DNA of 33,774 nt. Origin: Minisyncoccota bacterium. Its GTDB lineage: Bacteria; Patescibacteriota; Minisyncoccia; 2-02-FULL-40-12; GWA2-44-9. A model generated the notes under the pieces. It was not told the origin of the DNA and did no database searches. It saw only the letters and a list, made by a program, of their open reading frames with translations. This document shows positions 2,008 through 32,551 of the stretch, in pieces. The first letter of the stretch is position 1. Every line of letters begins with the position of its first letter. The position numbers and the translations under genes were made by a program. The DNA is taken from assembly GCA_040899895.1 (NCBI GenBank), contig JBBDZW010000023.1:1-33774 (forward strand), written 5' to 3'.

Positions 2008-4692
2008 ATGAAAAAGCTTGTTTTAATAGACGGCCATGCGTTGGTGCACAGGGCTTTTCACGCCTTGCCCCCGTCAATGAGCTCTCCCAAGGGCATTCCA
2101 ACTAATGCCGTTTATGGTTTTGTCTCGGTTCTAATTAAAATAATAAAAGATTTAAAGCCGGAATATATAGTGGCCACTTTTGACTTGGCCGGTCCAACCT
2201 TTCGCCACGAAGAGTTCGCCGAATACAAGGCTCATAGGGAAAAAGCCCCCGATGATTTGCATGTTCAGGTTCCACTAGTAAAAGAAATTTTAGTCGCCTT
2301 CGGAATTCCAATATATGAAAAAGCGGGTTTTGAGGCCGATGACCTTATCGGTTCTATTGCCGAGCTCACCAAAAAGCACAAAAGTATTCAAACAATAATT
2401 GCTACCGGTGACTTAGACACCCTTCAGCTTGTTGATGGCGATAAAGTGGTTGTTTTGACTTTAAAAAAAGGCGTGACCGATACGATTTTATATACCCAAA
2501 AAGAAGTGGAGGAAAGATATGGGTTACCGCCGGAACAGATGATTGATTTTAAGGGATTAAAGGGCGACCCTTCCGACAATATTCCCGGTGTTCCCGGAGT
2601 GGGGGAGAAGACTGCATCGGCTCTCATACAAAAATTCAAGAGTATTGAACTTTTGTATGAGGCAATTACCAAAAAAGGGAAGACAAAAATTCAACCGCCG
2701 CTTTCCGAAAAACTCATCCAAAAATTACTTGAGAACAAAGATATGGCCTTTTTCTCCAAAAAATTGGCCACAATAATCCGCGATGTTCCCATAGAGTTTG
2801 ATGTTAAAAATGCCGATTGGAAGAAGAATATGAACAAAGAGGAGCTTGGAAAAATACTTCAGGGTTTGGGTATTTACAGTTTAATTAAAAGAATAAATGA
2901 ATTAGATGGTTCTGTGGTCGGTGTTGTTACCGATGCTGAACCGCAAAAAACTTTGTTTGATAAAGATGAAATCGTCGTTAAATCTACAGAAGAAAAAACT
3001 GAGATAAAAAAAATAATCAATGACATATTAGAAAAAGGGGAGTTCGCTTTTGATGTTGCAATGAACCCCGATTCCAAGATTCCGAGCCATTTAGTCTTTG
3101 CTTTGGAAGGTAAAGAAACCCAAGCTATTCCCTGGGTTTTACTGGAAAGCGAAAAAGAAACTTTCAAAGCCATAAAGTCTATTTTTGAAGACGAAAAAAT
3201 AAAAAAAACAGGACACGACCTAAAAGAGTTATCAAAATTTCTTCTGTCAAAAGATATACGAATATCGGGTCTTGATTTTGACACCAAATTGGCCGCTTAT
3301 CTCATAAATCCTGATTTAAAAGATTATGCCCTGGACCACATTTATTTTACAGAATTTGGCCAAAACATAGACCCGAACCCGCTTAAGAAGTCAATTTACT
3401 TAAATGAGCTAAAAAAAGCTCAATGGGAGAAAATGAAATCCCTCGGTCTTTTAGATGTGTTTGAAAAAATAGAAATTCCTCTGGCGCCGGTACTGGCAGA
3501 GATGGAAACTAAGGGCCTCAAAGTTGATTTGAAGGCCATTTCCGATCTTTCCAAAAAATTAAATGAACAGATAGGAGACCTTGAAAGAAAAATATATAAA
3601 TTATCAAAAAAAGAATTTAACATTAATTCACCCCAGCAATTGTCGGCCATACTTTTTGAACTTCCGCCCAAAGGATTGGGAATAAAAGGCAAGGTAAGAA
3701 AAACAAGCAAGGGCGCCACATCAACGGCGGCTTCGGAGTTGGAGAAGCTTGTGGACGAACATCCGATTATTGATTTAATTCTTAAATACAGAGAACTTCA
3801 GAAGCTTAAAACCACTTATATTGAACCGTTTCCGAGTTTGGTTGGTAAGGACGGCCGTTTAAGAACAACGTTGAATCAAACCGGTACGGCTACGGGCCGT
3901 TTGGCGAGCCAGAATCCCAATCTTCAAAATATTCCGGCTCGTAGTGAGCTTGGCCAGGAATTCAGAAGAGCTTTTGTTGCCGCAAACGGAAAAGTTCTTC
4001 TTTCTCTTGATTATTCTCAGCTTGAATTGCGTATTGTGGCCCATTTAGCACAAGATAAAAAAATGTTGGACATTTTTAGAAGAGGAGAAGACATTCACAA
4101 CAGAACTGCCGCAGAAATATTTAGGGTTAATCCGGCGGATGTAACGCCAAATATGAGGAGAGATGCCAAAGCTCTCAACTTCGGAATTATTTACGGGATG
4201 GGAGTTAAAGGTTTCCAAAGGGCGGTTGGTAAATCCAGAGAAGAGGCTCGGGAGTTTATAGACAGATATTTGGAGGAGTTTTCAGGCGTTGCAGAATACA
4301 TTAAAAAAGCAAAACTAAAAGCCCGCCGAGACGGCTATGTGGCCACAATGATGGGCAGACGAAGACCATTGCCGGAAATAAAGTCCGGGATACCAATGCT
4401 CGTGGCTCAAGCGGAGAGAATTGCAATTAATATGCCTATTCAAGGAGCCGCCGCGGATATTATAAAAATTGCGATGATTGAAACAGTGGATCTTCTAAAT
4501 AATGAATATGAAGGAAGGGCGGATATGTTGCTTCAGGTTCATGACGAACTGCTGTTTGAGGTGGATGAAAAATATGTAAGAGAATTGGCAGTTAAAATTA
4601 AAAAAATAATGGAAAGCTCTCTTAAATTAGACGCCCCTTTGGTCGTGGAAGCCAAAATGGGTAATAATTGGGAGGAAATGGACAGGATATAG
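2008..4692 (+). CDS. polA: DNA polymerase I
   Basis: N-terminal 5'-3' exonuclease domain (LIDGHALVHRAF, GDPSDNIPGVPGVGEKTA). Pol motifs A (DYSQLELRIVAHL), B (RRDAKALNFGIIYG) and C (QVHDEL). The start is chosen at MKKLVLIDG; the ORF opens at 1990. Confidence 0.95.
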   Translation: MKKLVLIDGHALVHRAFHALPPSMSSPKGIPTNAVYGFVSVLIKIIKDLKPEYIVATFDLAGPTFRHEEFAEYKAHREKAPDDLHVQVPLVKEILVAFGIPIYEKAGFEADDLIGSIAELTKKHKSIQTIIATGDLDTLQLVDGDKVVVLTLKKGVTDTILYTQKEVEERYGLPPEQMIDFKGLKGDPSDNIPGVPGVGEKTASALIQKFKSIELLYEAITKKGKTKIQPPLSEKLIQKLLENKDMAFFSKKLATIIRDVPIEFDVKNADWKKNMNKEELGKILQGLGIYSLIKRINELDGSVVGVVTDAEPQKTLFDKDEIVVKSTEEKTEIKKIINDILEKGEFAFDVAMNPDSKIPSHLVFALEGKETQAIPWVLLESEKETFKAIKSIFEDEKIKKTGHDLKELSKFLLSKDIRISGLDFDTKLAAYLINPDLKDYALDHIYFTEFGQNIDPNPLKKSIYLNELKKAQWEKMKSLGLLDVFEKIEIPLAPVLAEMETKGLKVDLKAISDLSKKLNEQIGDLERKIYKLSKKEFNINSPQQLSAILFELPPKGLGIKGKVRKTSKGATSTAASELEKLVDEHPIIDLILKYRELQKLKTTYIEPFPSLVGKDGRLRTTLNQTGTATGRLASQNPNLQNIPARSELGQEFRRAFVAANGKVLLSLDYSQLELRIVAHLAQDKKMLDIFRRGEDIHNRTAAEIFRVNPADVTPNMRRDAKALNFGIIYGMGVKGFQRAVGKSREEAREFIDRYLEEFSGVAEYIKKAKLKARRDGYVATMMGRRRPLPEIKSGIPMLVAQAERIAINMPIQGAAADIIKIAMIETVDLLNNEYEGRADMLLQVHDELLFEVDEKYVRELAVKIKKIMESSLKLDAPLVVEAKMGNNWEEMDRI

Positions 4693-4709
4693 AGTAGATA
4701 ATTAATCCA

Positions 4710-5600
4710 ATGCCCGAATTACCAGAAGTTGAAACAATCGTGAGGGAGTTGAGAAAAAAAATAACAGGTTTAAAAATAACCGATGTTTGGGTTGATTGGC
4801 CCAAAACAGTCAAACAAGCCGGTGGTATCAAAAGTTTTAAAAGGCAGGTTAAGGGCAAAAAAATATTAAGTGTCAGGCGCCGGGCAAAATATATCATTAT
4901 GGATATAGAGGGGAAAAAGACTCTTTTTATTCACCAAAAGCTGTCGGGCCACCTGCTTTATGGAAAGTGGCAGTTCTTGAATGGTGTTTGGGAAAGCATA
5001 ATTCCGGGGCCGATGAAAAATGACAGACAAAACGGCTATATTCGGTTTATATTATTGCTGAACAACGGCTATCAGCTTGGACTTTCGGATTTGAGGCGTT
5101 TTGGAAAAGTCATTCTGGTGGACGATGATAAGGTTAAAGATCTTAAAGAAATAAGCGGCTTGGGCCCGGAACCTTTGGAGATAAATTTCAGCCAATTTAA
5201 AAAATTATTTGAATCCGACGGCCGGCGGAAAAAAGGCCGTTTGAAGCAGGTGCTGATGGATCCAAAATTTATTGCGGGGATTGGAAATATTTATGCGGAT
5301 GAAATATTGTGGGCCTCCGGACTTCATCCGTTTTCCCGCGTAGAAAATCTAAACACCAAAGACCTAAATAAAATTTATACTTTTATGGTTAAAATACTTA
5401 AAAAAGCCATAGAATATAAGGGCTCAAGTATGGATGATTATCGCATTCCGTCAGGAGAAAAAGGAAGATTTCAAGAAATTCATAATGCTTATCAAATGAC
5501 AAGAAAAAAGTGTAAAAAGAGGGACGGAGGAGTTATGCAACGGCTAAAGCTTAGTGGCCGTTCGGCTCACTTTTGCTCAAAGCACCAAATACTGAAGTAA
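4710..5600 (+). CDS. mutM: Formamidopyrimidine-DNA glycosylase
   Basis: The N-terminal MPELPEVE catalytic motif and the H2TH region (GIGNIYADEILW) are present. The C-terminal zinc-finger ligands are only partly conserved. Confidence 0.9.
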   Translation: MPELPEVETIVRELRKKITGLKITDVWVDWPKTVKQAGGIKSFKRQVKGKKILSVRRRAKYIIMDIEGKKTLFIHQKLSGHLLYGKWQFLNGVWESIIPGPMKNDRQNGYIRFILLLNNGYQLGLSDLRRFGKVILVDDDKVKDLKEISGLGPEPLEINFSQFKKLFESDGRRKKGRLKQVLMDPKFIAGIGNIYADEILWASGLHPFSRVENLNTKDLNKIYTFMVKILKKAIEYKGSSMDDYRIPSGEKGRFQEIHNAYQMTRKKCKKRDGGVMQRLKLSGRSAHFCSKHQILK

Positions 5601-5685
5601 AATCCAAATGACAAAATCCAAAATTTGGTTGTTTGAGCTTTAGATTTGATTTGACATTTGAGCTTTGAAATTTGTCATTTATAGT

Positions 5686-6690
5686 ATGAAATTCAATCTG
5701 AACAAAATATTAATATTAATTGGCTCAATAGCACTTATATTTGTGGTATCGTTCTTCGTTTGGTGGAACAATGAAATAATCATAACTAAGGACGGAATAA
5801 AAGTTGATTCAAGGGGTGCGGGATTAAAAAGCTCAATAAGCGGAATTGAGTGTGAAAACGCTAGTCGTCGACCGGTGGCGGTGATATTGGCCGGGGATCC
5901 TGAAACCATGCCACTATCAGGTATCGGTCAGGCCGATTTGGTTTTTGAGATGCCTGTCACACCCAACATCACGCGCCTAATGGCTGTTTTTCAATGCGAA
6001 GAGCCGGGAGAAATAGGTTCAATCCGGTCGGCGCGGGAAGATTTTATTCCTTTGGCCGCCGGACTGGGCTCCATATTTGCTCATTGGGGAGGGGAAAAGG
6101 ATGCTCTGGCCAGACTTGATAGCGGAGTTATAGATAACATTGATGCATTAAAATACGAGGGTACGGTATTTTACAGAAAAAATTCTCTGCCCCGACCCCA
6201 TAATGGTTTTACTACAATTGACCTTTTGCTAAACAAGGCCAACTCTTTGGATTATGAAATTGCCGATACTTTTTCCGGGTATCCTCACAGCGATAATAAC
6301 GCCAAAAGAAATCTTTCAAATTTGGTATCCACTATAAATATAAATTATCCTGGCCAATACAAAGTTCAGTGGCAATATGATGAATCGACTAATCTGTACT
6401 CACGTTTCCGGGGTAATCTTAAAGAAAAAGACAGAAACTCGAGTAAGCCTATTGTGGCGGGAGTGGTTATTGTAATGAAAACTTCCTCGCGAATTTTAAA
6501 CAAGGATTACATAAGTGTTAGTGTGGCAGGGGAGGGAGATGTTCTTGTTTATCAAAATGGCTCAACAATAACCGGAAAATGGAAAAAAGATCCGGCTAGG
6601 CTTGATTCAAAACTGTATTTTTATGATAACAACGGTCAAGAAATCAAGTTTTTACCGGGAAAGATTTGGATTGAAATAATTACCAATTAA
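5686..6690 (+). CDS. DUF3048 domain-containing membrane-anchored protein
   Basis: N-terminal TM ILILIGSIALIFVVSFFVWW. PVAVILAGDPETMPLSGIGQADLVFEMPV...TRLMAVF resembles the DUF3048/YerB family. The ATG at 5686 is preferred over the TTG at 5665. Confidence 0.7.
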   Translation: MKFNLNKILILIGSIALIFVVSFFVWWNNEIIITKDGIKVDSRGAGLKSSISGIECENASRRPVAVILAGDPETMPLSGIGQADLVFEMPVTPNITRLMAVFQCEEPGEIGSIRSAREDFIPLAAGLGSIFAHWGGEKDALARLDSGVIDNIDALKYEGTVFYRKNSLPRPHNGFTTIDLLLNKANSLDYEIADTFSGYPHSDNNAKRNLSNLVSTININYPGQYKVQWQYDESTNLYSRFRGNLKEKDRNSSKPIVAGVVIVMKTSSRILNKDYISVSVAGEGDVLVYQNGSTITGKWKKDPARLDSKLYFYDNNGQEIKFLPGKIWIEIITN

Positions 6691-12633: not shown

Positions 12634-12664
12634 ACTAAAAATAAAAGGCCGATATTTAATCGGC
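12634..12664 (-). terminator. Candidate intrinsic terminator (minus strand) just downstream of the IR-bounded element
   Basis: On the minus strand GCCGAT-TAAAT-ATCGGC is followed by CTTTTATTTTT. Confidence 0.45.
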
Positions 12665-12667
12665 GCT

Positions 12668-12939
12668 AGGAGAGCAGGATTCGAACTACTCTTCACTTGA
12701 GCGGAGCCAATTTTGCTCATATTCAAGGCGTTGAGGAGCGATGCGTACTTAATGTACGTGAACGACGAACAACACAGAAGATGAGTAAAATTGGTTCGCC
12801 CTTCAGGGAAGTTCAAAAATGGCTGATTTCTTTGTTGCTCCTCCTCAATGTGGTTTAAACCACACTTTCGTCGTCACGCCGCGAAATCATCTCATTTTTG
12901 AACTTCTCAATTTGAAGATAGTTCGAATCCTGCTCTCCT
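12668..12939. repeat. 272-bp element bounded by a perfect 21-bp inverted repeat; candidate structured ncRNA or MITE-like element
   Basis: AGGAGAGCAGGATTCGAACTA (12668-12688) is the exact reverse complement of 12919-12939. Inside are two long hairpins: 12704-12720 with 12781-12797, and 12808-12821 with 12893-12906. An apical 14-nt palindrome, GTGGTTTAAACCAC, lies at 12850-12863. Confidence 0.5.
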
Positions 12940-13133
12940 TAATGCGGTTTTATGTCTTGAATGTCAAAAGAGGAAAAAGAACGGTTGCCTAAATTGATTA
13001 TTTCTTCGCAATTAACAACCATTAGCCCGTATACGACGGTTCCGTTTTTTAAATGTACATCAACAATGTGATAACCCATTCCTGATTCCGGCAATGCTAT
13101 CAGTTTGACTATCCATTTCTGGCTTAAACGCAT
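12939..13133 (-). CDS. Small hypothetical protein (64 aa)
   Basis: The ATG at 13133 is preceded by a GAGGGAAG RBS. The ORF reads MRLSQKWIVKLIALPESGMGYHIVDVHLKNG... I recognise no family. Confidence 0.45.
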   Translation of the reverse strand: MRLSQKWIVKLIALPESGMGYHIVDVHLKNGTVVYGLMVVNCEEIINLGNRSFSSFDIQDIKPH

Positions 13134-20167: not shown

Positions 20168-20439
20168 CGCGGGGTAGAGCAGCGGCAGCTCGTCAGGCTC
20201 ATAATCAAATTGTGACCTATCATAGTAATATGATATGGAAAACTCTCTAAACTGCTGGAAACCCTAATTCACATGAATGGGCAATCAGCAGCGAAATCCT
20301 GAGTTAACCGAAGGAGACGTTCAGAGACTATAATGGGAGCATCCGCCGGTCGGCGGATGATGGTATAGTCCGACACTGTCAGTAATGGCAGCCAACAGTC
20401 AGAACCTGGAGGTCGTGGGTTCGAATCCCACCCCCGCAA
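20168..20439 (+). tRNA. Initiator tRNA-fMet (anticodon CAU) interrupted by a group I intron; CCA not encoded
   Basis: Exon 1 is CGCGGGGTAGAGCAGCGGCAGCTCGTCAGGCTCAT. Exon 2 is AACCTGGAGGTCGTGGGTTCGAATCCCACCCCCGCAA. The joined exons closely resemble E. coli tRNA-fMet, including the C1xA72 mismatch. Confidence 0.9.
20203..20402 (+). ncRNA. Group I intron (IC3-like, ORF-less, 200 nt) in the tRNA-fMet anticodon loop
   Basis: The 5' exon ends in U (CAU|) and the intron ends in G (20402). A GTGAC internal guide candidate lies at 20212-20216. The motifs GGAAACCCTAA, TCAGAGACTA and ATAGTCCGAC parallel cyanobacterial tRNA introns. GACTA and TAGTC can form P7. Confidence 0.8.
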
Positions 20440-20516
20440 CATTCGGAACCCAAAATCCCCATAATGGGGACTTTGGTTTCATTGCCAATTCACCGGATTA
20501 GATTTAGATTTAGGAT

Positions 20517-26297: not shown

Positions 26298-27083
26298 ATG
26301 TCCAACCCATTTGATACTCATTGTCACCCCCAGTTTCCTCACTACGATGCAGACCGAGAAGAGGTAATTCGCCGTGCTATCGAACAAGGTGTGTCCATGA
26401 TCTGTGTCGGGACCGATCTGGAGATGTCCAGAAAGGCAATTGAACTTTCAAAAGAACACAAAAACATCTGGGCTGCTGTCGGTGCTCATCCGAATGATCT
26501 AAATAATTTGATCTTGGATGATTTCGTCCACCTGATGAATCATGAAAAAATTGTAGCAGTCGGTGAAGTGGGTTTGGATTATTATCGGACCAAAAGGGAA
26601 GACCAACAAAAAAAGCAAAGAGATGCATTTGAACAATTCATCAATCTTGCTTATCAATATAAAAAACCGCTTATCCTGCATTTGCGAGATGCCCACAAAG
26701 ATGCAATTGAAATATTAAAATCAGCCAAAAATATTTTATACGGCGGAGTGGCACATTCATTTACTGGTACATTAGAAGAAGCAAGAGAGTATTTGAACTT
26801 AGGATTTCATCTGGGCTTCAATGGCATTATTACTTTCCTGCCTGCCGGCAGGCAGGTGCGAGGACAATATGATGAGATAGTCATTCACACTCCCTTGGAC
26901 AAGATACTTCTGGAAACCGATGCCCCGTACCTAACCCCGGAACCGTATAGAGGTAAGAGAAATGAGCCGGCTTTTGTTTGGGAAGTAGCCAAAAAGATAG
27001 CCGAACTTAAAAATATTTCAACAGAAGAGGTAATTGAAAAAACGAATCAAAACGTTATAAAACTATTCAAAATTAGTATATAA
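26298..27083 (+). CDS. tatD: TatD family metal-dependent hydrolase/DNase
   Basis: The N-terminal FDTHCH, GEVGLDYY, ILHLRDA and ETDAPYLTP motifs fit the family. Confidence 0.9.
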   Translation: MSNPFDTHCHPQFPHYDADREEVIRRAIEQGVSMICVGTDLEMSRKAIELSKEHKNIWAAVGAHPNDLNNLILDDFVHLMNHEKIVAVGEVGLDYYRTKREDQQKKQRDAFEQFINLAYQYKKPLILHLRDAHKDAIEILKSAKNILYGGVAHSFTGTLEEAREYLNLGFHLGFNGIITFLPAGRQVRGQYDEIVIHTPLDKILLETDAPYLTPEPYRGKRNEPAFVWEVAKKIAELKNISTEEVIEKTNQNVIKLFKISI

Positions 27084-30915: not shown

Positions 30916-31570
30916 TTATTGAGCGCCGCAGGGCGCGAAATACTGAGGCCAGGAGGCTGAATGTATTGAGTCCCGAGAGGGACAATATCTCAAGCCAATT
31001 TTTGCGAATTCCTAGGGCGAAGGATATTAAACTCCAAGTATAACCACTAGTGAACCTTCCCAATTTTATATACTTAACCAGCTTATTTTTAAGAGAGTTT
31101 GATTCTGGCTCAGGATGAACGCTGGCGGCACCGATAAGTCATGCAAGTCGAACGGTCCCTCCCCAGTTTCGCAAGAAACTGGGGAGGGATAGTGGCGAAC
31201 GAGTTAGTAACACATTGGTATCTACCTTAAAGTCGGACACAACTAATCGAAAGATTAGCTAATTTCCGATAGTCTCGTAAGAGTAAAGGAGCAATCCGCT
31301 TTGAGAGGAGCCTATGTCCTATCAGCTTGTTGGCGGGGTAACGGCCCACCAAGGCTATGACGGGTAGGGGGTGTGAGAGCACGACCCTCAACGACGAAAC
31401 TGAGACACGGTTCGTACACCTACGGGTGGCAGCAGACGAGAATATTCGACAATGCACGAAAGTGTGATCGAGGGATGCCGCGTGCAGGAAGAAGTCCTTC
31501 GGGATGTAAACTGCTTTTGTCAGGGAAAAATTTTGATTGTACCTGAAGAATAAGGGGTTGCTAACCTCGT

Positions 31571-32492
31571 GAATTTTCTATCGCCTCCTCGGGCGATAGC
31601 GCGAGCCCTCATAGGAATATGAGGTGTAAAATACTTGGCTTATATGCTGGAAAACCTAGTTAATAGTTTAGTACCGCTTGCGGTGACAATCTAAACTAAA
31701 TTATTGTTGATTTAGTCAATAATAATGCTGGAAAATCAGCAGGGAAGCTGGTATAATGAGAGTAATGAATCTGGATAAAAAGACACAAGATATCATAGTA
31801 GGTTTACTTCTTGGTGACGGAAGTTTTGAGAAGAAATCAGATACAATTGGAATTCGATTGCAGATAAAACAGCAGTCGAAAGCAAAGGAATATGTTGAGT
31901 GGCTCTATGGTCATCTCAAGGATTACTGTCTTTCCGAGATAAAACTTAGGAAAGACTACAATCAATATTATTTTAGCACCAGATATTTGAGAGAATTTCA
32001 GAACCTGTATAAGATCTTTTATAGAAATGGAAAGAAAGTTATTCCATCGAATATAAAAGAACTATTGACTTCACCATTAAGTTTGGCCATATGGTATATG
32101 GATGATGGATCTTTAGATTTTAGACCTAAGGACCACTATGCTTTTTATTTAGCGACAAATTGTTTTACGGTTACAGATTCTCAGCGGCTTCAAAAAGCTT
32201 TGCAAGAGAATTTCGGAATATCTTCCGCCGTATATAATAATTTGTGTAGAGGAAAAAGATATTCAAGAATATGCATTGGGTCGAAAGGCAGAGATCAATT
32301 CTGCCGCTCGGTCCGACCACATATTTTAAAATGTTTTTCCTACAAGTTGCCTCAATATACTTAGCCCCCCAGAGACTTGGTTCTAAACGAACCGGATAGC
32401 AATTTTTTAGTTGCTATAAGACGCCGAGCACCCGACCTCATTATGAGTGGGTGGTGATATAGTCCAAAAACGATTGATTCAATTGTTATATG
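31571..32492 (+). mobile_element. Group I intron 1 in 16S rRNA (between E. coli-equivalent GT and GCCAGCAG, ~position 514)
   Basis: A 922-nt insertion splits ...CTAACCTCGT | GCCAGCAGCAGCGG. The 5' exon ends in U and the intron ends in G. The motifs CAGAGACTT and GATATAGTCC (the P7 halves) flank the end of the embedded LAGLIDADG ORF. Confidence 0.8.
31756..32364 (+). CDS. LAGLIDADG homing endonuclease (double-motif), intron-encoded
   Basis: The two motifs are IIVGLLLGDGSF and LAIWYMDDGSL. The ORF lies entirely within 16S intron 1. Confidence 0.9.
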   Translation: MRVMNLDKKTQDIIVGLLLGDGSFEKKSDTIGIRLQIKQQSKAKEYVEWLYGHLKDYCLSEIKLRKDYNQYYFSTRYLREFQNLYKIFYRNGKKVIPSNIKELLTSPLSLAIWYMDDGSLDFRPKDHYAFYLATNCFTVTDSQRLQKALQENFGISSAVYNNLCRGKRYSRICIGSKGRDQFCRSVRPHILKCFSYKLPQYT

Positions 32493-32520
32493 GCCAGCAG
32501 CAGCGGTAATACGAGGACCC

Positions 32521-32551
<31 letters not shown>

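Follow-up and report, generated by a model that had tools for sequence, protein, structure and literature searches.

A probably mobile, non-coding palindromic repeat family with tRNA-like ends in Parcubacteria

The element at positions 12668-12939 of contig JBBDZW010000023.1 (Minisyncoccota bacterium, assembly GCA_040899895.1; the whole stretch analysed, 33,774 nucleotides long, is called the window below) is probably one copy of a family of non-coding, non-autonomous mobile palindromic repeats of about 270 bp, which resemble MITEs (miniature inverted-repeat transposable elements) and have ends that appear to derive from a tRNA. A preliminary description of the window had left three options for this element, a novel structured non-coding RNA, a 3' untranslated region (3'-UTR) element and a tRNA-derived MITE, and the last of these fits best given the dispersed copies, the deletion derivatives in which the termini are kept and the match between the termini and a tRNA 3' end. 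This option was upheld with regard to the existence of other copies and the origin of the termini, but the CPR sequence examined (CPR, Candidate Phyla Radiation) yielded no transposase whose terminal repeats match. Full-text searches of the literature gave no account of a repeat of this type in CPR bacteria, and the family is previously undescribed; the kind of object, a small non-autonomous palindromic repeat, is already known.

Copies were recovered by exact-word scans followed by BLASTN and an nhmmer profile search, and labels such as L001 denote the related loci or contigs that were compared with the window. When the 21-nt terminal repeat was compared with a single genome of each species, it matched CPR metagenome-assembled genomes, with four contigs in Candidatus Harrisonbacteria and further matches in Candidatus Yanofskybacteria, in a bacterium of the Parcubacteria group and in an unclassified "bacterium" bin, as well as two Flavobacterium genomes, and a 20-mer scan of metagenomes gave 41 further loci. 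The CPR matches were homologous over the whole 270 bp by both BLASTN and the nhmmer profile. There were 13 distinct full-length copies (282-356 nt, pairwise identity 60-96%) and about 20 additional partial or shortened copies in CPR contigs, and all forms together spanned 52-356 bp. The window copy was 66-84% identical to the other full-length copies. The profile scored about 300 bits in the orientation of the window minus strand versus about 70 bits in the other, and this gives the family a polarity, the minus strand being its standard orientation. Two copies each were present on single contigs of L004 and L037 and at least eight in a Harrisonbacteria genome; members of a subfamily were 91-96% identical at non-orthologous sites, and copies on the same contig were sometimes just 76-83% alike. 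At least 13 metagenome contigs started or stopped inside the element, as expected of a repeat that breaks assemblies. No element copy was found in IMG/VR, which gave just tRNA-type matches to the 18-mer core of the repeat and chance matches to a 16-mer, and a phage or plasmid origin was rejected after a negative distant BLASTN comparison with INPHARED and PLSDB. As far as sampled, the family is confined to the Parcubacteria/Paceibacteria of the CPR.

The preliminary description had proposed that further copies be sought in related genomes, and the search returned many of them, dispersed and without syntenic conservation. Every copy was intergenic, often 0-15 nt from a gene end, and copies occurred in all orientations relative to their neighbours, with 5 of 13 following a gene on the same strand. 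The flanks of the other copies were not homologous. Among 30 immediate neighbours compared with Pfam, unrelated housekeeping genes prevailed (ftsZ, fusA, metK, gatC, pth, efp, comEC, rmuC, sodA, AAA proteases and glycosyltransferases), the sole non-housekeeping neighbour being a large serine recombinase beside a tRNA-Tyr gene, and clustering of 429 flanking open reading frames (ORFs) revealed no recurrent partner gene. No reading frame was open across the copies and there was no Pfam match, so a coding element was rejected. Some insertion sites deserve mention in their own right. At L018 (about 1040-1120) and L020 one copy begins 1-2 bases past the discriminator base of a tRNA-Thr gene, and one copy in L042 is found just upstream of a tRNA fragment, the tRNA-Tyr gene and the large serine recombinase. 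At L034 (4028-7014) a copy is located between an ORF with ComEC Competence/DUF4131 domains and an ORF with a metallo-beta-lactamase domain; as these domains form one ComEC protein in many bacteria, this copy may lie in or at a split comEC gene.

In the closest relative (PrkA 88% identical) the spacer between the divergent genes for the family-2 glycosyltransferase and PrkA is 121 bp, compared with 663 bp in the window, where it holds the promoter, terminator, element and small ORF described below, and two further relatives were also without the element at prkA. Similarly, relatives lacked it upstream of rmuC (proteins 88-92% identical) and downstream of ftsZ (proteins 92-96% identical). Where relatives are without the element, other long palindromes, 230-300 bp in length, come directly after the ftsZ stop codon (L115, 3140-3400; L116 and L118, 3137-3440); they are bounded by TCGCTC-type direct repeats and in L116 adjoined by an rve-family transposase. 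The 3' flank of ftsZ is a synteny breakpoint and seems to be a hotspot for a number of repeat families.

The element is closed by two terminal inverted repeats, 12668-12688 (the 3' terminus of the family in its standard orientation) and 12919-12939 (the 5' terminus). As previously described, their complementarity is perfect over 21 nt and continues imperfectly inwards; the repeat extends to 34 nt at 82%. When up to three mismatches were allowed, the 21-mer had no additional match in the window, in line with a chance expectation of none. An inverted repeat of 18-23 bp was present in all copies, the terminal sequences GGAGAGCAGGATTCGAAC and GTTCGAATCCTGCTCTCC were kept in all forms, and the terminal repeat was the most conserved block in the family.

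Read on the minus strand, 12668-12688 is TAGTTCGAATCCTGCTCTCCT, which corresponds to a tRNA T-loop followed by the 3' strand of the T-stem and the 3' acceptor strand. A tRNA-Tyr that ARAGORN called on a phage contig (L100) has the 18-mer core GTTCGAATCCTGCTCTCC as its exact 3' end, comprising the T-loop, the 3' strand of the T-stem and the first five bases of the acceptor, and if one G is deleted the match runs on into the 5' T-stem strand (TAG-TTCG versus TAGGTTCG). A CPR tRNA-Tyr adjoining one of the copies has the same T-stem, CCTGC. Judged by this similarity, the termini appear to derive from a tRNA-Tyr-type 3' end and to make the family a clear bacterial example of such a repeat. Given that the T-loop sequence is fully paired with its inverted copy, no T-arm can form, and the would-be T-stem positions 51-52 and 62-63 cannot pair. 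The tRNA likeness therefore concerns the origin of the ends or whatever recognises them and says nothing about the fold. The earlier statement that no tRNA cloverleaf can be built held up: ARAGORN called neither a tRNA nor a transfer-messenger RNA (tmRNA) in the element and called four tRNAs elsewhere in the window. Outside the family, the 18-21-mer was found with no other similarity to the element in phage tRNA regions and beside HTH_17 excisionase-like genes in Flavobacterium and metagenomes. In Flavobacterium and related loci (L001, L005, L017, L036, L032, L045 and L049) the 21-mer occurs once per locus, often beside an HTH_17 excisionase-like ORF, and these loci are probably attachment remnants of integrative elements at tRNA 3' ends, unrelated to the CPR element. 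In four IMG/VR contigs (L099, L102, L105 and L106) GTTCGAATCCTGCTCTCC ends sequences inside phage tRNA arrays that were not called as tRNAs by ARAGORN and that may be unusual tRNA-like genes.

The dinucleotide TA was found at 28 of 38 terminus flanks, compared with a TA frequency of 6% in these loci (P about 1×10−26), and every insertion had TA on at least one side. That no target-site duplication is visible was correct for the window copy; it is in the family as a whole that the termini are TA-bounded. Since TA is its own reverse complement, a duplication of TA is indistinguishable from a two-base extension of the repeat. At L003 (6949-6990) a full copy is directly followed by a degenerate second 5' end (AGGAGGATAGGATTTAAACTT...) with the TA shared, as if two elements had inserted in tandem.

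Deletion derivatives of 52-55 nt consisted of the terminal repeats and a short linker hairpin, and a 70-nt form, in which one stem strand is retained, was near-identical at at least four Harrisonbacteria loci and was also present in a second genome. Because these short forms are dispersed, the termini must suffice for spread and the arms of the element must be dispensable for it. An autonomous element was sought as paired termini up to whole-locus distance, and only a restriction-modification cassette at L027 turned up. There (2138-5807), two 70-nt forms in direct orientation, each with an inward 117-bp perfect inverted repeat, bracket a 3.3-kb cassette with genes for an Mrr_N protein, for a NucS-like endonuclease and for an N6/N4 DNA methylase. 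The cassette is a restriction-modification island that either inserted at the repeat or was captured by it.

The element is predicted to fold strongly on either strand. The minimum free energy was -118 kcal/mol for the plus strand and -119.4 kcal/mol for the minus strand, compared with about -66 kcal/mol for dinucleotide shuffles (z = -10.6 and -10.3, respectively). The consensus fold was obtained with RNAalifold and examined by explicit pair counting on the 13 full-length copies (102 pairs), with column shuffles and slid partners as controls. It is a three-way junction composed of a closing stem P1 (the terminal repeats plus linker), arm A, a small CCC/GGG hairpin and arm B. The inner, imperfect extension of the closing stem (P1b; 12689-12703 with 12906-12918, helix 2 of the alignment) was 99% paired, with double changes in 6 of 10 pairs. 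Both long hairpins of the preliminary description were present. Arm B (12704-12797, minus strand) has a covarying lower stem, a large internal loop and an apical hairpin, CGTAC..GTACG; its stem pairs 12704-12724 with 12777-12797, and the two G-T pairs on the plus strand are indeed A-C on the minus strand. Arm A (12808-12906, minus strand) has the same organisation, with a perfect 14-bp stem plus an extension (12808-12821 with 12893-12906) and the apical hairpin GTGTGG-TTTAAA-CCACAT. Between the arms lies the mini-hairpin CCC-TTCA-GGG (12799-12808, helix 8). The two arms thus share a plan of a variable stem, a two-pair clamp, a sequence-conserved internal loop (about 10 plus 11-14 nt) and an apical hairpin of 5-6 bp.

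This fold was strongly supported by the pair counts. In the observed alignment 94.8% of the cells were paired, compared with 86.0% in column shuffles and about 40% when partners were slid, and 45 of the 102 pairs had changed on both sides, compared with 21.4 in shuffles, none of 500 of which reached 45. The covariation was located mostly in the lower stems, with 12 of 16 pairs in arm B (helix 10) and 10 of 20 in arm A (helix 3). That no known RNA family had been recognised also agreed with our results: Rfam 15 gave no gathering-score match for the element in the window or in 10 related loci, and at E-values up to 10 it gave only sub-threshold matches to eukaryotic microRNAs, small nucleolar RNAs and long non-coding RNAs.

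The internal loops of the two arms are complementary to each other. The 5' loop box of arm A (12867-12875; minus strand GACGACGAA, plus strand TTCGTCGTC) is complementary to the 5' loop box of arm B (12759-12769; minus strand TTCGTCGTTCA, plus strand TGAACGACGAA), and the 3' loop box of arm A (12838-12846; minus strand GAGGAGGAG, plus strand CTCCTCCTC) to the 3' loop box of arm B (12733-12740; minus strand CGCTCCTC, plus strand GAGGAGCG). On the minus strand the loops of arm A are purine-rich and those of arm B pyrimidine-rich (TCGTCG(C)TC, CTCCTC). Interleaved, pseudoknot-like complementarities had been noted before; they are real, at the positions given here, and they are conserved in the family. 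The helix between the 5' boxes (helix 5) had 8 pairs with 97% of the cells paired in the 13 copies, and the helix between the 3' boxes (helix 7) had 6 pairs with 88% paired. The complementarity was held in divergent subfamilies, L030 and L002b having dropped a bulge so that the second helix grows to 9 bp, and it was intact in L014 (937-1216), where arm B comes before arm A between the same termini, an order that implies rearrangement or flipping of the arms with respect to the frame. If both loop-loop helices formed together with the stems, the arms would be joined through two four-way junctions, or two molecules would be linked head to tail. The loop boxes matched neither the termini nor the insertion flanks, and the flanks were not conserved beyond TA.

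In the mobile-repeat interpretation that we favour, an enzyme supplied in trans would recognise the termini and move the element. A candidate would be a DDE transposase of the IS630/Tc1-mariner type that duplicates TA or, equally, a recombinase that crosses over at TA. The interior, as single-stranded DNA or as a read-through transcript, would fold into the three-way junction, and preservation of this fold in propagating lineages would leave stems that covary between subfamilies while single copies gather strand-neutral mismatches. Several observations weigh against this interpretation. The interior is under far greater constraint than that of an ordinary MITE (45/102 double-change pairs versus 21 in shuffles), the four loop boxes are as conserved as the termini and, given that the short forms spread without arms, the arms must be conserved for a reason beyond bare mobility. 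Arms that had arisen as inverted duplicates would carry their boxes in reverse order, and palindromic ancestry or hairpin-templated repair therefore cannot yield the observed 5'-5'/3'-3' pattern. Among the oriented copies TA was present at 13/13 of the 3' flanks but at only 7/13 of the 5' flanks (Fisher's Exact Test, P = 0.015). No base-exact empty site could be aligned at prkA, rmuC or ftsZ, where relatives are rearranged or too diverged, and a comparison between L007 and L037 was too diverged as well; with no precise empty site, the TA may belong to the repeat itself and not be a duplication. In the roughly 450 kb of CPR sequence examined there was no transposase or recombinase whose termini matched, and the 33.8-kb window contains only one copy of the element.

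The foremost alternative, which we consider unlikely, would make the element a structured, multi-copy non-coding RNA (or a single-stranded DNA structure) that has its own function, in which the terminal repeats are a mere vehicle or closing helix and the loops of arms A and B drive intramolecular kissing or head-to-tail dimerisation. The very strong covariation with variable stems and conserved loops, the loop-loop complementarity in all subfamilies including the arm-reversed L014, the clear polarity of the profile and the short forms showing that the arms are unneeded for spread all speak for such a structure, and a precedent for the layout exists in tandem-spacer stem-loops (PMC12045711). 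The mismatches are informative in this respect. Nearly all one-sided changes in the 8-bp loop-loop helix preserve wobble pairing on the window minus strand (6 G-U cells versus 1 A-C), and mismatches common to several copies lean towards G-U on the same strand (25 versus 7 cells, 6 versus 3 positions). This lean is a weak hint, from few independent events, that propagating lineages were selected for a single-stranded form of minus polarity. However, over all pairs in family orientation there were 43 G-U and 34 A-C cells, no marked excess and far below that of an RNA gene, and single-copy mismatches were strand-neutral (11 G-U, 15 A-C), as neutral decay after insertion predicts, and this argues against RNA genes under purifying selection. 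Furthermore, there was no conserved promoter or terminator, copies occurred in every orientation relative to flanking transcription, the loops were constant and matched neither element ends nor flanks, no box C/D-like UG...CCA frame was conserved, and no Nop/Tas, DEDD recombinase or reverse transcriptase gene was associated in the contexts examined. The non-coding RNA option of the preliminary description has strong covariation and conserved loops on its side but no conserved promoter, terminator or orientation and no strand bias of recent mismatches.

A related proposal would join the two readings, with an interior that acts as functional single-stranded RNA or DNA on mobile, tRNA-mimicking termini. 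The loops of arms A and B would either pair, in a double four-way-junction core or a head-to-tail multimer, or act as fixed tandem guides for a recombinase or nuclease encoded in trans. We regard this as rather improbable; if true, it would mean a new class of selfish structured RNA or DNA in CPR bacteria.

It also seems doubtful, and distinctly improbable, that the element is a site for site-specific recombination, either an inverton flipped between the 21-bp repeats or an attachment site that captures cassettes, with the tRNA-like termini as integrase core sites. Its size and repeat length are typical of invertons, which include fimS and the Bacteroides and Clostridioides switches, and the 18-mer is a tRNA 3' end of the kind that integrases use, adjoins HTH_17 genes in Flavobacterium and occurs in phage contigs. 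The direct 70-nt forms around the L027 cassette, the opposite arm order in L014 and the copy beside the large serine recombinase and tRNA-Tyr gene point in the same direction. Nevertheless, no sigma-70-type promoter was found at a conserved position inside the element in either orientation, although the inverted repeats expected of an inverton are there, the copies were not consistently upstream of genes and 17 of 18 contexts examined had no linked recombinase gene. Inversion alone explains neither the dispersal to many loci nor the deletion derivatives, and the L027 arrangement could have arisen by homologous recombination.

In the window, the minus-strand order is the TAA stop codon of a small ORF (12939-12941), the element, a terminator-like hairpin, a promoter and prkA, in agreement with the preliminary description. 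The small ORF (12942-13133, minus strand; 64 aa, or 79 aa from a GTG start) ends at the element boundary, base 12939 being both the last base of the right repeat and the first base of the minus-strand stop codon, and it obtained no family annotation from Pfam or PHROGs. The intrinsic-terminator-like hairpin with its T-run (12638-12664, hairpin 12664-12648, minus strand) is outside the repeat and directly after it, and a near-consensus promoter, TTGACA-16-TAAAAT (12628-12601), lies ahead of prkA. From the position of this hairpin on the same strand, the window copy is probably transcribed together with the small ORF, as a passive passenger. That the element instead serves this locus specifically, as a cis-acting 3'-UTR or terminator-type element for the small ORF (an mRNA stabiliser, or an insulator before the prkA promoter), is very unlikely. 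It does lie exactly between the small-ORF stop codon and the same-strand terminator, and long hairpins can protect 3' ends, as those of REP/BIME and ERIC do. However, tBLASTN found no homologue of the small ORF beside any other copy, the copies occur in all orientations with just 5 of 13 after a same-strand gene, and relatives express prkA and the glycosyltransferase without the element. The 3'-UTR option as originally put was not supported. Least of all can the element be a degenerate tRNA or tmRNA gene, or paired tRNA fragments left by integrative elements with no further significance: its termini match a tRNA-Tyr-type 3' end at 18/18 positions, plus the 5' T-stem with one deleted G, but there is no cloverleaf and no tRNA or tmRNA call, the T-stem cannot form judging from the sequence, the two fragments are inverted rather than direct, and dozens of unrelated loci show this architecture again, conserved interior included. 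An intact tRNA or tmRNA gene was rejected on the negative ARAGORN and Rfam results.

The element's neighbours in the window, namely PrkA, the family-2 glycosyltransferase and RecG, include no reverse transcriptase, and an association with a retron or reverse transcriptase was rejected. The window genome is that of a relative of Candidatus Yanofskybacteria, and its PrkA was closest to Yanofskybacteria proteins, as were the neighbours of two other copies. Elsewhere in the window, the 16S rRNA gene (31095-32532) has a 930-nt insertion that holds a 202-aa ORF (31756-32364), and a group I intron (20193-20392) is followed by the apparent 3' half of a tRNA (region 20193-20440); both features typify CPR genomes. 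A perfect 20-bp palindrome, CCTGCCTGCCGGCAGGCAGG (26837-26856), is located in frame within a TatD-like ORF (26298-27083, plus strand) and recurs with up to two mismatches at three other places, inside an insertion in the arm A loop of the L003 copy, beside the L002/L033 copy and in L027. It may represent a second, tiny palindromic repeat family common to CPR genomes.

The genomes of CPR bacteria and Parcubacteria are tiny (<1 Mb) and thought to be streamlined. Nevertheless, the present family and at least two other palindromic repeats are found in the short spacers between their genes, at synteny breakpoints and next to inserted cassettes. Once catalogued, the family would account for assembly breaks that recur in CPR metagenome bins, supply markers for strain tracking and point to a mobilising enzyme. 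If the mutually complementary loops prove functional, the element, which is about 270 nt long and has numerous natural variants, would also be an accessible model in which to study a new architecture of RNA or single-stranded DNA.

Several known systems share features with the family. IS110 bridge RNAs and TIGR units consist of stem-loops with two-sided guide loops, and the present element has a similar layout, in that both of its stem-loops combine a covarying stem with an apical hairpin and an internal loop that is two-sided, at about 9-12 nt per side (PMC12045711). An IS110 bridge RNA was rejected, there being no DEDD recombinase nearby and no match of the loop boxes to termini or flanks, and so was a TIGR array, given just two arms, constant loops and no Nop-domain Tas gene, UG/CCA frame or tandem array. 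Attachment sites at tRNA 3' ends are alike in that the 18-nt core is identical to the L100 tRNA-Tyr 3' end and to the probable attachment remnants in Flavobacterium and phage contigs. Unlike in tRNA genes and attachment sites, the fragment is doubled and inverted in the element, closes a helix instead of a T-arm and has no adjacent integrase. The interspersed palindromic repeats bcr1 of the Bacillus cereus group, ERIC/IRU of enterobacteria and REPINs have predicted single-strand folds that are kept by compensatory substitutions, as in the present family, and both mobile-DNA and RNA roles have been argued for them. They are single long hairpins, whereas the present element is a three-way junction with mutually complementary conserved internal loops, and the linked RAYT gene of REPINs was not seen beside it. 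MITEs derived from IS630/Tc1-mariner elements resemble the family in the TA at either end and in the length of their terminal inverted repeats, about 20 bp; in the present family, by contrast, the TA is asymmetrically conserved and there is no known autonomous partner. Correia elements of Neisseria (CREE/NEMIS) bear no sequence relation to the family and lack tRNA-like termini and a conserved multi-arm interior, and their IHF sites and promoter boxes were not found here. To our knowledge, no cognate transposase is known for either family. Correia elements are, however, also small non-coding repeats (100-155 bp versus 270 bp here) with TA-bounded terminal inverted repeats of about 20-26 bp, dispersed between genes near gene ends and co-transcribed with their neighbours as long hairpins. 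Correia elements and IS630-type MITEs are the best functional analogues of the present family, with bcr1/ERIC/REPIN-type repeats also close.

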